Part shown: piece by piece, positions 1 to 48,527 of the stretch
How the letters are laid out: each line of letters begins with the position of its first letter
Numbering within the stretch: position 1 is the first letter of the stretch
Source of the DNA: Eledone cirrhosa
Lineage: Eukaryota
Reading direction: 5' to 3'
NCBI GenBank assembly: GCA_964016885.1
Contig: OZ024742.1
Location: forward strand, 51,646,001 to 51,710,000
Length of the DNA: 64,000 nucleotides
The notes under the pieces: model-generated
Seen by the model: only the letters and a program-made list of their open reading frames with translations
What the model was told of the DNA's origin: nothing
The model's database searches: none
Program-made: the position numbers and the translations under genes

Positions 1-2
1 GA

Positions 3-95
3 TTAAATTTTAAGCAAAGAATCGCTGCTTTCACCCTTAACGGGATCTTCTGAACATCCCGTTAAGGGTGAAAGCAGCGATTCTTTGCTTAAACT
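3..95. repeat. Fold-back of a PLE 3'-end (pLTR) fragment carrying the CAGAAGA-type hammerhead
   Basis: taagcaaagaatcgctgctttcacccttaacgggat ... atcccgttaagggtgaaagcagcgattctttgctta are perfect inverted arms; same sequence at 25085, 40856, 43242, 44404. Confidence 0.8.
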
Positions 96-324
96 TTTAT
101 ATGTTATTTTAATATTTTAATAAGTAAATATATACATATATATATATATATATATATATATATATATATATATATATATATATATATATATATATATAAG
201 AAAATGAGGTTTGTATTAAATGAAAAAAAAATAAGATGTCCTACACGAGTGAAAGTATAAAGAAAATAGATGAAATCGAAAATGCAACTGGAGTCTTTTT
301 AAGATCACTTATTTGTTTCCCTTA

Positions 325-360
325 CCTTACCGGTTTCACAGTTCTTATGCTTTTCAAATG
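325..360 (-). ncRNA. Minimal hammerhead, U3-A8 core variant
   Basis: Minus strand TTGAAAA-GCA taagaac TGT-GAAA-CCGG-TA; same repeat family as 32540-32680. Confidence 0.55.
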
Positions 361-599
361 TAGAATGGAGATGGAGGGTTTTGTAGTTTATAGATATATA
401 TAAGTTTTATTTATATAAACGAATGTATCGGAAGAGGAGTCCGAATAGCTTCGGCCAGTCCATTACTAAACCAATGAGATACAAGATTTAAACGTGTGGA
501 TGTACAAATCTATATCTCAGAAGGCACATTATATACGTTAATCGTATGGAGACGGCAACTCGTTGGTAATGATAATTGCATATAATAATGTTCTGGACT

Positions 600-986
600 A
601 TTAATAATTTTCTATTTTTGGCACAACGCAAGCAATTATCACAGTGCATTACTGATACATTATTTTATCCACCCCATAAGGATGAATGGCAACAATAACC
701 TCGGCCTGATTTGAACTCAGACCGTAAGGGGGCGTAACCATATACTGCAAAACATGGTGTCTGACCCTCTATCCATTCTGCCAATTCACTATTAATAATT
801 GTTTCTACTTTTGGCACAAGGCCAGCAATTATCCCAGTGCATTACTAGTACCTTATTTTATCGACCCTGTAAGGGTGAATGGCAAAATTAACCTCGACGC
901 GATTTGACCTCAGCCTATAAAGGGACGTAACTCTATGCTACCAAGCATGGTGTCCGACACTCTACTGATACTGCCAATCCACTGCC
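600..986 (-). mobile_element. Two tandem tRNA-derived SINEs (octopod OK/OR-like)
   Basis: Reverse complement has B-box gagttcaaat and the tail ggggtcgataaaataaggtac...ggccttgtgcc...gtagaaacaattatt shared with about 8 other copies. Confidence 0.85.
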
Positions 987-1717
987 GTACACTATTAAGA
1001 ATGTCTCTGATTATGGCCTTATCTGGCAATCATTGCTGCACCGATCATTCACAGTGGTTATATGTATATACCATGCAGATATTGCATAACCAATTCCATA
1101 AAACTTCATCAGCGGATACAGTCCAACCTATCAACAGAAGGCTTGTGATGGCGCCCTCGGTAGCTGAGTCTTCATATAGTACTAAATGTAGCTGCTTCCA
1201 ACTTGTAGTAACACACGACATCAGAGGAGGTGTAAGTTGAATATCTAACCATGGCAAGGAAACCTTGCGGTGGAAAATTCAAATAATGAATTCTTAGCCA
1301 TAACCTCTCAAACAATGAAATAATTAAAAACAGACTTGCAAAGATTAACTGATGTATAAAAAGATAACCATTTTCCTTACATTTTTGTGTGAACATGATG
1401 ACTGGAAGATGAAATATATGAATTTATCAACAGATCTATTAGAAGATGGGCGGCGAATAATCTCGGGCGGTCCATTACACATTTGATGAGATATAGGATT
1501 GAATCTGAGAACGTACAAAACAATATCTCTGAGTGCAAACTATATACGTTAATCGTATTTGAGAGGGCAGCCCGTGGGTAATGATACTTCCATATCATAA
1601 CAATATAGTTCTGTTTTCACCCCGAAAGCGATGATATATATATATATATATATATATATATATATATATATATATATATATATATATATATATATATATA
1701 TATATATATATATAAAT

Positions 1718-44454: not shown

Positions 44455-44590
44455 TTAATCTGTTATTTTAATAAACATATATATATATATATATATATAT
44501 ATATAACTGAGATAAGCCGAACAAGTAAAATTCAAACAATCTTTCAAAATAAATTCAAAATATATAATTTAAATATTTACCTATCCAGAT

Positions 44591-44671
44591 TGCTTTTACC
44601 GACGGTTTCGCCTCACAAAAGATTGAAAATCCGAGGGACTTCGAATGGAAAGTTCGGCTCTTCAGAAAGCA
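44591..44671 (-). ncRNA. Hammerhead with expanded loop II
   Basis: TGCTTT-CTGAAGA-GCC [~40 nt] GGC-GAAA-CCGTCGG-TA-AAAGCA; perfect 6-bp stem I, GUA triplet. Confidence 0.8.
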
Positions 44672-44879
44672 TTTTCCCTTACAGAGGACAGAAAGTCCCA
44701 CAGCCGGCAAATATATTGCCTTCAGCCAGCTAGTGCAGGATCGAATGATGGGTGTCTTTGTCAGTGTGTAGAGACTTGCTGGCTGGCGCGGGCAATGGTT
44801 AGTTTATGAAATTGGGCATGTAGATCTGAGGTAGGCTTACCATGGATTATGTGTGCAGGTTTAGTGTCTTTTTACATAC

Positions 44880-45680
44880 ATAGAGTGAGGGTGTCCTACA
44901 GGATAAAGTGGGAAGCATTGGTGGATAAGAAAATCAGGACCATGAATACAGATACTAATGCATCCAAATTCAGAGAACCCCTGAGCAAACTGAGGATGTT
45001 AAGAGAGAGTGAAGATTGTTCAGCTCAGCAGTTTTTGCATCATCTGTTAAATGCTGCGAGCGAAAAAGGCTTAGTGTGGCACCATATGGCGGAAGGACTC
45101 CTTGGTTCCTCTCGAGGAGCCAAAGATGCCATCCAAGCAAAGAAAGATGCTTATAAAGCTTGGATTGGAATTACGTCCTCCTCATTGGACCTGCGGTACA
45201 AGCAGACACTTAGAATTGCAGCAGTGACAGTAAAAGCATCCAAATTTAAGATAAAGGAGGCCTTTGTGGTTAAGGTGGAATCTAACTTCAGATTACCAAA
45301 TAAAGTGTTCTGGAGGACCATCCACCAACTTCGTAATAAGAAGCATTCCTCCACGCCTGATGTCAAGAAGGCGTCTAGGGTTATCCTCTTTTCATAGATG
45401 TACATCCTCGCGAAGTGGAGAGAAAACGTTGCTGATCTTCTAAACCCGATCACAACTGCATCTTCTGCAGAGGCTGGGGTCACAAGTGCATTTAAAGAGT
45501 TCAAATGTGACAAGGCCGCTGGGGACGATGATGTCCGGTGCGAGATCTTAAAAGCCATATATAGAGAAGGTGTTCTCTGTCTGACTCGTTTGTGCCAGTT
45601 GGCCTTGATCTCTGGAAAAGTACCTAAGCTATGGCACTCATCTGTGGTAATCCAAATTTCCAAAAAGAGAGACAAGAGTG
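44880..45680 (+). pseudogene. Decayed RTE-clade LINE (EN-RT linker and RT N-terminus)
   Basis: KDAIQAKKDAYKAW, KVFWRTIHQLR, KAAGDDDVRCEILKA, GKVPKLWHSSVVIQISKK. Confidence 0.8.
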
Positions 45681-47472
45681 ATAAACGTCTTTCAGATCAA
45701 TTCAAACGACTGGTCAGAGAAAATATTAAATGGTTTTATATCCCGTGTCTCTTCTATCTATAAATAGTTACATATGTAGTACTTATGAACTATGATGAAA
45801 AAGAAAATGAATCACAATCTATCGCTTTGAGGAAATGGAACAAAATGATTAAATAACATGCCTCTAGGACAGATTGATCAAAGCTCGCTTGTGATAATCA
45901 ACAAATTGAGGCGAGTTAAATAGTTGCAAAGGGTCGATTTCATGTTTATAACACCAAACGTTTCAAGCAGGTATTTTCGCAGACCTGTAGTTATGTACGT
46001 CTTCAATTAAACTATTCTAATTGTAACAGTATCTGGTATTCAGTGGTTATAAACACGGGGTTCATTCTAATATATTGTCAATTTCCTCAATTCCGAATTT
46101 AGAAACAATTTATATAATTAATAAATATTAATGTTACACTGTGGCACAAGACCCAACATTATTAATACCATATGAACGTAAGCACATAATATTCCTCGCC
46201 AGTGAAGGAGCAGCAACGACATACATAAGATGTGAAAAGTTCATAGGTGTATAGATATAATAATGGGTTATTGAGACATATTACCATCCTTAATAATACA
46301 CTACATAATGTTTTGTAAAGATTTCTACAAGGCCACCAATTTTGGGAAAATGAAATTCTATTATAACGACATATGTTCATGACTGGTACGATAATTTATC
46401 GACACATGAAGGTTCTAATGCAAAGTTCAATTTGGAAGAGGTTGTTCTGAGTAGGTAGAGGGCCGGAACAAGTAGCGCCATGATTTTCTTCTGACATGCT
46501 AACGATTATGATAACTTACTGTATAGGAATGTAATTATTTAAAGACAGAAATATACGTTAATAATGTTTATAAATGTAAATTCTATAAATGTTTGATGTT
46601 TGATCAAAACATACATAAGCAAAAGTAATCATATTTAAATTAGCGTGTGAATATTTTACTGCCACAAGCTGCATAACTCATGAAAGAATCAAAAGGAAAA
46701 TTTATTTAGCATGACGTATATAAATGGAGATATGAATGTATATTAGATTAATACAAATCGTAATAAAGATGTGTCAGTAAATGATATGTTGTTTACTAAG
46801 GAAAGCTTGTTTTTAGTTAGGATTTCAAAACGACAACAATGTTGAAAGATCATATACATCAATTATTGTAGATGAATGCGAACTATTGCAATGAACAAAT
46901 TGTTAAGGGTGTAAGCATTTCTTGCTTGTACATATCATTCCTCCTTAATACACATTGAAACGTTGAAATTCATATACAAAATATGCTATAAGTAAAGGAT
47001 AATAGGTGTCTCATTAAATGATAGTTTTACTTATATTTCAAAGCATAATATATTTACTTATATTTCAAAGTTATAATAAAATGATTCCATTCTATAAAAT
47101 AATTTTCAATTATAACATTGTATTGTCATCTAGTAAAACGAACAGAAACGTTGCCAGCATTTGAAACTATATTCTTAAATCCCGCATGCTAATTTTCTAT
47201 CTTCCCTAGGTACATTTAATAAGTTTGATGAAAGGCCTAGAGAGAATTTCCTTTATAAACACACTCACCCCCACCAACACCCACCCACCCACCCCTACAC
47301 ACACACACATATATATATATATATATATATATATATATATATATATATATATATATATATATATAAAATTTCAGGTTATCAATAATGTAGTGATAATATA
47401 TCGTTACGTTAGAGATGAACAGCGTACGTGCAGGTTTGCTCAACGAGTATAAATTATATTCCGGAGAAAATG

Positions 47473-48527
47473 TAGAAAGGATGAATATAAAATGAAAGTG
47501 CTTTTGTTAAAAAAGGAATTTATTAGGTATTGACATATGTTTCTGTAACAGACCGAATACCTATGTATCGCTGCTTGCGTAATCATATAATGTTAGCAAG
47601 TATTCGATAGCAAATGTATAATCAGTTGTCACTTCTTCAGAGATTTTGGATAAACTGGATAAAATCAGAAAAATTGAAGTATTTATATTAGTAAAAGAGG
47701 AAGGAACAGAGGGGATAGTATATGACAGATGGTAAATTAATTTACTGCTAAACAAGTATATAATGGGTTTCTAATGAGAATACCATGAGTAAATCTAAAT
47801 AAGAATTTTGGGAGTGCCAATTTTAATCTCTACTTGACCAACTGGACAGTGGACAGGGCTGGTCATTTGGTGCAGCAGTATTAATTATAAAGTGTCAATT
47901 GGGGAAGGGGGAGATTTCGATTGCTACTAAATAACATCAATAGCATTGATGTTATTTAGTAGCAATCGAAATCTCCCCCTTCCCCAATTGACACTTTATA
48001 ATTAATACTGCTGCACCAAATGACCAGCCCTGTCCACTGTCCAGTTGGTCAAGTAGAGATTGATGTTATTTAGTAGCAATCGCACTCTCCCCCTTCCCCA
48101 ATTGACACTTTATAATTAATACTGCTGCACCAAATGACCAGCCCTGTCCACTGTCCAGTTGGTCAAGTAGAGATTAAAATTGGCACTCCCAAAATTCTTA
48201 TTTAGATTTACTCATGGTATTCTCATTAGAAACCCATTATATACTTGTTTAGCAGTAAATTAATTTACCATCTGTCATATACTATCCCCTCTGTTCCTTC
48301 CTCTTTTACTAATATAAATACTTCAATTTTTCTGATTTTATCCAGTTTATCCAAAATCTCTGAAGAAGTGACAACTGATTATAGATTTGCTATCGAATAC
48401 TTGCTAACATTATATGATTACGCAAGCAGCGATACATAGGTATTCGGTCTGTTACAGAAACATATGTCAATACCTAATAAATTCCTTTTTTAACAAAAGC
48501 ACTTTCATTTTATATTCATCCTTTCTA
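47473..48527. mobile_element. ~470-bp near-perfect palindrome with internal ~113-bp tandem duplication; HHR-like 48360-48468 (+) and mirror (-)
   Basis: Centre aacatcaat-agc-attgatgtt at ~47943; CTGAAGA-A-GTGACA [~75 nt] TGTTAC-A-GAAA-CATATG-TC, then AATAAA and (TA)n. Confidence 0.75.

Follow-up and report, generated by a model that had tools for sequence, protein, structure and literature searches.

Head-to-head arms with a one-sided "tail" have already been published for Penelope-like elements (PLEs; PMC3846280; PMC8557442 Fig. 2), and the origin of their tandem and inverted insertions is stated as an open question in PMC8557442 and the accessible text of PMC11167929. The same accessible text reports that in vitro the Anolis Poseidon PAc enzyme, a predicted dimer, cuts and extends both strands of an AT-rich target, that two internal start sites delimit the tail, and that no difference in start site was seen between the strands; its main text draws no link from the PAc products to two-armed insertions. 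As far as the accessible portions of PMC7229834 and bioRxiv 10.64898/2026.07.22.740005 describe them, metazoan non-LTR retrozymes are non-coding tandem units of 420-470 bp with a type I hammerhead, for which PLE mobilisation has been proposed from co-occurrence and pLTR similarity. The mobilising enzyme of animal retrozymes has so far only been suspected.

The window, a 64,000-nucleotide stretch of Eledone cirrhosa DNA, contains two-armed insertions of the element PLE-1 and of families A to G. Each family has two fixed 3' ends, a short one (S) and a long one (L), the L end lying 34-110 nt further.

1-118, left arm minus, right arm plus: family E stub, the pLTR of coding PLE-2, right end near the S site; the L end of the left arm lies about 80 nt left of the window and the junction (48-54) falls in the quasi-palindrome TTCTGAA
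9136-9465, minus: inverted arm of PLE-1, S end at (TA)n
9466-13602, plus: sense arm of PLE-1, in the order broken RT and C-terminal GIY-YIG ORF (about 9962-12244), 3' UTR, pLTR and 34-nt tail (13570-13602), L end at (TA)n
13664-15032: family C two-armed insertion with S on the left and L on the right; the arms share 91% identity and a SINE-like piece, and hammerhead cores lie at 13879 on the minus and 14547 on the plus strand
15273-17491: family A retrozyme with units of 467 bp and five hammerhead cores; the minus arm on the left (15273-16568) ends at S and the plus arm on the right (16567-17491) at L, with a 68-nt tail that forms a perfect hairpin, and the two overlap by 2 nt where they join
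33301-33853: older, incomplete copy of family B; the minus arm on the left has its L end outside (TA)n, and the plus arm on the right has a deletion spanning the ribozyme and is interrupted at 33852, where another hairpin element cuts it
34688-36718: family B retrozyme with units of 424 bp; a minus arm on the left (L end, 56-nt tail with hairpin) and a plus arm on the right (S end), separated near 36182 by a short AT insert
39690-40358: 3'-terminal stub of a coding PLE (family F), S on the left and L on the right, 40-nt tail (40318-40358)
40838-44478: two S-ended arms of family E around a remnant of the PLE-2 ORF (42885-41799, minus) and nested inserts; perhaps a single S/S insertion, perhaps two separate ones
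43205-43403: family E stub with a minus arm on the left (34 nt, S end) and a plus arm on the right (L end), the latter opened by an extra G ahead of the presumed RNA start
43575-44177: family G two-armed insertion; left arm minus (L), right arm plus (S), 62-nt tail, L end adjoining (GA)17 and then (TA)n
47366-48527: 3'-terminal stub of a coding PLE (family D), with a minus arm on the left (L end) and a plus arm on the right (S end), tail of about 110 nt (47366-47472), internal 114-bp duplication

An earlier note on this DNA had described the insertions as head to head with both 3' ends outward. This holds at 10/10 loci of the window, where the left arm is minus and the right arm plus, and the head-to-head layout is published as the usual PLE arrangement; the note gave inverted pLTR segments in PLE insertions as established. 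Orientation is likewise not random in genome-wide pattern samples of seven families, in which 119 of 124 opposite-strand neighbour pairs have the order (-,+). Each sample consisted of the first 100 listed matches to one pattern per family, neighbours being opposite-strand matches at most 10 kb apart, counted by hand. Among the matches listed, the (-,+):(+,-) counts are 19:0 for family A, 24:0 for PLE-1, 17:3 for E, 15:0 for D, 28:1 for F, 10:1 for G and 6:0 for C, and the three exceptions in family E are separate insertions side by side.

A rule sharper than polarity, and absent from the earlier note, is that one arm ends at S and its partner at L. The outer ends, previously described as falling at different points of the unit, instead fall at the two fixed sites. 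In a survey of 151 loci in seven families (none scored in D), the 88 scored pairs comprise 83 LS, 4 SS and 1 LL (p about 1e-19 for the LS excess against a 0.5 expectation), and three of the five non-LS pairs are nested or three-piece loci. Joined pairs in family E, a set that overlaps these 88, are LS in 29/33 cases and never SS or LL, four having a non-standard end, while four further family G loci are all LS. L093 and L191 are clear S/S examples, as perhaps is 40838-44478. Single-armed copies are frequent (about 15/38 loci of family A), and independent contigs have loose (TA)n ends at both sites, S and L, of this family; loose ends in RAD-seq data track restriction sites and so carry no information. 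The limits in the earlier note enclosed the paired repeat only and left out the unpaired tail at five boundaries: the corrected ends are about 13602 (was 13570), 40358 (was 40325), 43575 (was 43637) and 47366 (was 47473), and the locus given as 3-95 extends some 80 nt beyond the left edge of the window. The one-sided tail itself is already published for Pen2a_Av (PMC3846280) and in the PLE scheme of PMC8557442 Fig. 2, whereas here it is counted as a near-obligate rule of one S and one L; compared with Pen2a_Av and EN+ PLE insertion units, tails here measure 34-110 nt and duplications 12-13 bp.

Judged by its sequence, 9466-13602 is a C-terminal EN+ Penelope-like element. The single ORF of PLE-1, with RT followed by a GIY-YIG endonuclease, is broken by a stop and frameshifts; it has 626 homologues at E<=1e-30, of which, among those listed, most carry PF00078 and many PF01541, and its direct Pfam match is weak (RVT_1, E 0.0017). 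PLE-1 shows partial tandem pLTR, an inverted copy and a tail (L367, L369, L370). The string CGRTNCGTC in its translation fits the CX2-5CxxC linker ahead of GIY-YIG that is a trait of the Neptune/Nematis clades (PMC8557442), a motif that alone does not fix the clade. Longer copies of D, E and F run on into PLE ORFs on the same strand, the relatives of D and E being linked to the window fragments by tblastn. These three families are therefore 3' stubs of coding PLEs rather than non-coding elements, and their candidacy as non-LTR retrozymes was rejected because a coding body is present in the longer copies.

A hammerhead fold was detected by scan in A and C, and core motifs were recognised by eye in B, G and E, the last having CAGAAGA for CTGANGA. 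No hammerhead was recognisable in any arm of PLE-1, D or F; the 39 PLE-1 arms gave no hammerhead match, only a degenerate AAGATGA...GAAA remnant. The label "HHR-sense" used earlier thus applies to A, C, B, G and E and not to the arms of PLE-1, D and F, whose sense strand was assigned from the ORF in relatives. Families A and B consist of non-coding tandem units of 467 bp and 424 bp with a type I hammerhead core in each unit, like the metazoan retrozymes, the unit of A slightly exceeding the quoted 150-450 bp retrozyme range; an Rfam gathering search gave no match. From their sequence organisation, both are non-coding tandem retrozymes with the same insertion footprint as PLEs. Relative to the retrozymes described in the accessible portions of PMC7229834 and bioRxiv 10.64898/2026.07.22.740005, the arrays here bear the full footprint of two arms, S/L ends and tail hairpin. 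We found no ORF continuous with the A and B arrays and no coding partner for them among the fetched loci; their pLTRs are similar to no coding family tested, and the resemblance of A to B (about 61%) is the sole pLTR similarity met in that comparison. The idea that PLE machinery moves the non-coding arrays gains from the footprint of A and B and loses D, E and F, which are coding-PLE stubs; for A and B themselves, the footprint speaks for PLE mobilisation and the absence of an autonomous partner among those loci against it.

The anatomy of these old insertions suggests, with a probability of roughly 0.7, that each two-armed locus is one insertion of an S arm and an L arm, made by a Penelope-type enzyme priming both strands at two fixed sites. 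The enzyme, a predicted dimer, would cut an AT-rich target with a 12-13-nt stagger that leaves 3' overhangs, each of which would pair by 2-7 nt with an AU-rich spot of the RNA, the S or the L site bordering the tail. Both target 3' ends would then be extended on sense RNA, one from each fixed internal site, and the cDNAs would end on meeting a roadblock, the other primer or the capped RNA 5' end before being joined through short microhomology or small inserts, with fill-in producing the target duplication. Both cDNAs would usually come from one RNA or one source locus; where the arms overlap, as at most loci, this would take either two rounds of copying on one RNA, by displacement, or a second RNA. 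Retrozymes A and B would bring their own S/L tail and borrow the PLE protein in trans. In L1 twin priming, the second nicked strand primes internally to give a head-to-head inversion within one target duplication; it starts from poly(A) and a chance internal site, occurs in a minority of events and yields arms without overlap. The tail-only L arms here that stop near the S site resemble this outcome. In contrast to L1, both sites here are fixed, the arms usually overlap, and most events in young families give the two-armed product. The anole in vitro data fit twin priming of this kind, save that the lack of a strand difference in start site counts against it; the PAc start site is called non-homologous to the target in the accessible text of PMC11167929, whereas here 2-7 nt of AU microhomology with the target is present at the S/L sites. 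In the open-access literature, with the supplements of PMC11167929 covered as text so that a drawn model could be missed, we found no paper stating twin priming for PLEs.

An improbable alternative is that cDNA, or antisense RNA (PMC3846280), folds into a hairpin and is copied back, the short arm being a copy of the long arm and later asymmetric central deletions blurring the symmetry. Such fold-back accounts for the polarity, the one-sided tail and the near-identical arms, but it demands that the L arm contain the whole S arm. In 14/29 family E loci the S arm begins 5' of the L arm, the arms are not nested in 8/18 family G loci, and in full-length PLE-1 L370 neither arm lies inside the other; moreover, the L arm is tail only in 11/29 E loci, four of these starting <=13 nt from the S site. 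Self-complementary junctions fit fold-back as well as they fit twin priming: 7/8 short F loci have a single 10-bp palindrome as their joining point, with a mismatch at its centre in two of them, and further such words occur in G (L326, L333, L349), A (L065) and E (TTCTGAA), although four-base palindromes seem better suited to annealing of two ends than to a hairpin. This subclass qualifies the earlier claim of little homology at central junctions, which holds at most loci (0-5 nt overlap or short inserts). Paired inner starts <=8 nt apart in 11/19 G loci (permutation p 1e-4) speak for twin priming and for fold-back alike; paired starts are uncorrelated in A (6/37) and B (2/20). An extra non-template G is present on 10/11 E arms that start at either of two sites, 5 nt and 8 nt ahead of the ribozyme core, and on 4/28 other short E starts; in 2 of the 10 it could derive from the partner arm. 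A cap-like G of this kind, lying on sense arms, speaks for sense RNA as the template, and the present data oppose the antisense self-priming model of PMC3846280.

It is likewise unlikely that one primed cDNA switched template onto new cDNA or a second RNA, or that endonuclease-mediated resolution (PMC8557442) made the tail difference. The common single-armed copies suit this explanation, as do junctions of three pieces and inserts templated locally (L076, L094, L364, L017), but the duplication covers both ends, each of which has target microhomology at a fixed AU-rich site, and both tail borders are RT start sites in vitro in the accessible text of PMC11167929. Duplications of 12-13 bp enclose both arms at L019, L063 and L078, and insertions with informative duplications lie in imperfect AT-rich sites. 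As such, the earlier proposal of priming on a cut (TA)n target keeps its core, dual priming, which all the genomic tests made here support, and loses the requirement for self-complementary (TA)n.

That two elements inserted independently into one (TA)n, or that inversions came later, is very improbable and largely refuted. In favour stand the very high abundance of the families (21,736 exact genome-wide matches for family E) and the eight tail-to-tail neighbours of the 151-locus survey; on the other side stand direct junctions without TA, a single duplication round both arms, LS pairing and a shared haplotype. In family A, the arms of one locus differ by 0.8% from each other and by 2.9% from those of other loci (mean of medians), the own partner arm is strictly closest in 14/33, and at L013 the arms resemble those of other loci at least as much as one another; L228/L229 carries a private 73-nt deletion common to both arms. 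Part of this similarity could come from gene conversion. A fold-back assembly artefact has a negligible chance: no read crosses a window junction and no record in public runs bridges the D junction, among short contigs and reduced-representation reads from other samples, but arm identities of 89-99.8% over 200-520 nt, the one-sided tail, the duplications, varied junctions and opposite-strand joints in unrelated raw reads and contigs speak against it.

Together, the non-nested arms, shared haplotype, 12-13-bp duplications and cap-like G in E favour two target-primed cDNAs over fold-back, antisense self-priming and artefact; with LS pairing, they support the core of the earlier proposal, that both strands prime internally and the two cDNAs are joined. 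A more specific version, which we hold tentatively and at slightly less than even odds, is a programmed, asymmetric twin target-primed reverse transcription. In it, a dimer would hold one RNA at two fixed sites, prime both strands of the staggered cut and copy overlapping parts by displacement, so that an inverted arm plus tail would be the normal product; retrozymes would be true PLE passengers with their own evolved two-site tail, and telomerase-like stutter at initiation on a short template would lay down (CT)n and perhaps (TA)n. A countable one-S-one-L rule common to coding elements and non-coding arrays makes a specific model, testable in the existing in vitro PLE system. Twin priming would show how protein-free repeats spread, and a telomerase-sister reverse transcriptase writing on both strands of a break would be of interest for RNA-templated DNA writing.

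In preset windows, inner ends are in modest excess just 3' of the A cleavage site (12/63, p 0.004) and at the B core (9/44, p 0.01). An unbiased scan test for hot spots in A and B is not significant (p 0.15-0.48) and the tail is not enriched, so that neither a circle nor ribozyme cleavage is demonstrated. The inner-end distribution of A gives no support to long arms stopping at the S site, and variants close to the junction inflate the insertion side of the junction-overlap counts in this family. A MITE or foldback DNA transposon, which would have identical terminal inverted repeats and a constant interior, was rejected, since the ends differ by a tail and the junctions vary by locus. The junction differs at nearly every locus; one recurrent F junction is an exception to this locus specificity.

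Self-comparison of the window (G000:C3:51646001-51710000), which comes from a 3.0-Gb animal genome rich in (TA)n, revealed inverted pairs at all ten places where an earlier note had put two-armed insertions. These loci fall into eight sequence families: A, B, C, D, E, F, G and the coding Penelope-like element (PLE) PLE-1. Families A and B consist of non-coding units in tandem, every unit with a type I hammerhead core, and, by their sequence, are retrozymes. The PLE-1 ORF is broken and comprises a reverse transcriptase (RT), a CX2-5CxxC linker and, at its C terminus, a GIY-YIG domain. 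Where D, E and F copies are longer, they enter PLE ORFs on the same strand, and the window loci of these families are therefore 3′ stubs of coding elements. A scan of the PLE-1, D and F arms recognized no hammerhead; very abundant family E (21,736 exact matches of one 26-mer) keeps the hammerhead shape with core U4 replaced by A, as at 44410-44450. Some family C copies carry a SINE-like repeat within both arms, between the S site and the tail (14085-14313 and 14747-14977). The window also holds a minus-strand ORF remnant of a PLE-2-type relative (51043-52426) and another dispersed family, which has a long perfect hairpin and lies beside (TA)n (1735-1897, 33852-34033, 40360-40561 and 42960-43137).

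Mapping the arms family by family showed that arms end 3′ at one of two fixed points per family, giving a short (S) or a long (L) end, and that a tail sets the two apart.

Approximate tail length between the S and L ends
Family A (467-bp unit): 68 nt
Family B (424-bp unit, about 61% like A): 56 nt
PLE-1: 34 nt
Family E: 87 nt
Family F: 40 nt
Family D: 110 nt
Family G: 62 nt

In tandem copies the tail leads on into the following unit or into the 5′ body, so that S and L are both internal sites of the RNA. Two-armed loci nearly always carry one end of each kind. Automated scoring of 151 loci gave 88 pairs, 83 with one S and one L end, four S/S and one L/L; family D had no scored pair in this set, but five D pairs judged by eye are S/L. 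An enlarged family E set of 33 joined pairs held 29 S/L, no S/S or L/L, and four with one non-standard end. Complete window loci are all S/L, the sole exception being the outer E pair at 40838-44478 (S/S). The pairs of the earlier note are real, but five of its boundaries miss the tail. In contigs of a public run, (TA)n loose ends occur at both family A sites. Neither this rule as counted nor its extension to non-coding arrays was found in the open-access literature searched.

The head-to-head polarity proposed in that note holds across the genome samples: 119 of 124 opposite-strand neighbors no more than 10 kb apart, counted by hand in seven family samples, are head-to-head. Sampling took the first 100 matches per pattern search in coordinate order, blind to orientation, and three family E exceptions are adjacent separate insertions. 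The layout itself is not new. PMC3846280 describes it as the most frequent PLE arrangement, PMC8557442 an inverted 5′-truncated copy at the PLE 5′ end with the tail often at one end only, and PMC4209133 pairs of ribozymes that lie 100-700 bp from each other on opposite strands. Two tail-to-tail mirror duplications of opposite polarity (56890-57302 and 39264-39674; arms 97% and 92% identical) are centered on (TA)n and take in flanking sequence, and probably arose by fold-back at the TA tract, not by PLE twin priming.

Each two-armed locus appears to be the product of a single event and no assembly artefact, although none of the public contigs and reads searched spanned a window junction. Window arms are 89-99.8% identical, setting aside the 38-nt arms at 3-95. 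Most of the 49 loci examined have targets of pure or near-pure TA and are uninformative, and 12-13-bp duplications surround both arms at L019, L063 and L078, where the target is imperfect. Most central junctions have little homology, as had been noted, with 0-5-nt overlaps or short inserts; the overlaps slightly exceed a blunt-join null.

The combined evidence favors asymmetric twin priming, with a probability of roughly 0.7. PMC11167929 reports that a PLE cuts both strands and extends them from two internal sites that delimit the tail, and predicts a dimer for the enzyme. Fold-back or antisense self-priming would require the S arm to sit inside the L arm and accounts equally well for palindromic junctions. 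However, the S arm is not contained in the L arm in 14 of 29 family E loci (11 of these with a tail-only L arm), 8/18 family G loci, A loci L073 and L081, and full-length PLE-1 locus L370, although deletions at the center of old palindromes could give the same appearance. Family A arms differ by 0.8% within one insertion versus 2.9% to other loci. Of 35 loci, 33 overlapped enough to be compared (2 dropped), and in 14 of these 33 the own arm was strictly the closest. Against twin priming, gene conversion could raise arm identity, and about 15/38 family A loci are single-armed.

Inner starts also bear on the template. In family E, 39 arms have their start no more than 30 nt from the core. Eleven of them begin at one or other of two sites, and a non-template G is present on 10 of the 11, versus 4/28 at other starts. 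In retroelements other than PLEs, a non-template G is established as a copied cap; by analogy, we infer that the extra G is a copied cap, pointing to sense RNA. The two inner starts of family G lie within 8 nt in 11/19 loci, some at 4-10-bp self-complementary words; such closeness would be expected if both cDNAs reached one RNA end and then annealed. Seven of eight short F insertions (L357-L364) share a junction at a 10-bp palindrome, still with one S and one L end. The twin priming of the earlier note is favored, from insertion anatomy (arm nesting, arm identity, start-site G) and published in-vitro PLE work; our search of open-access literature found no such reading of PLE insertions.

Retrozymes A and B bear the same insertion footprint as PLEs. 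By eye, 18 of 19 complete A loci are S/L and one S/S, B is S/L in 15/15, and both tails carry a perfect hairpin. PLE mobilization has been proposed in PMC7229834 and bioRxiv 10.64898/2026.07.22.740005 from co-occurrence and similarity to pLTRs, the PLE terminal repeats; the footprint is more direct evidence. It supports the earlier suggestion that PLE machinery moves non-coding arrays, but no partner enzyme for A or B was found among the fetched loci, and D, E and F are not non-coding. Three A arms (L351 = L016, L352 = L061 and L353 = L079) are joined, head-to-head and without TA, to pieces of the 3′ ORF region of other PLEs; at the L353 junction there is a 141-nt piece of LINE RT, and the partner there ends in (TA)n. 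These joints could be mixed insertions, or the pieces could lie together by chance. Family B is very young, with arrays in which each arm holds over 20 identical units (e.g. G000:C1:348707598-348716169), and such arrays suggest a circular or long multimeric template.

A variable-length (CT)n tract lies between the element and (TA)n at one end type only in PLE-1 and G (L201-L230, L321-L350). It occurs at 15/18 PLE-1 S ends (2-29 repeats) versus 0/12 L ends, and at 12/18 family G L ends (e.g. 43541-43574) versus 2/18 S ends, and is nearly absent from A, E and F. The tracts may come from stuttering as initiation begins, in the manner of telomerase, or from insertion targeted to compound microsatellites; PLE-1 RNA reads UCUCU at this position.
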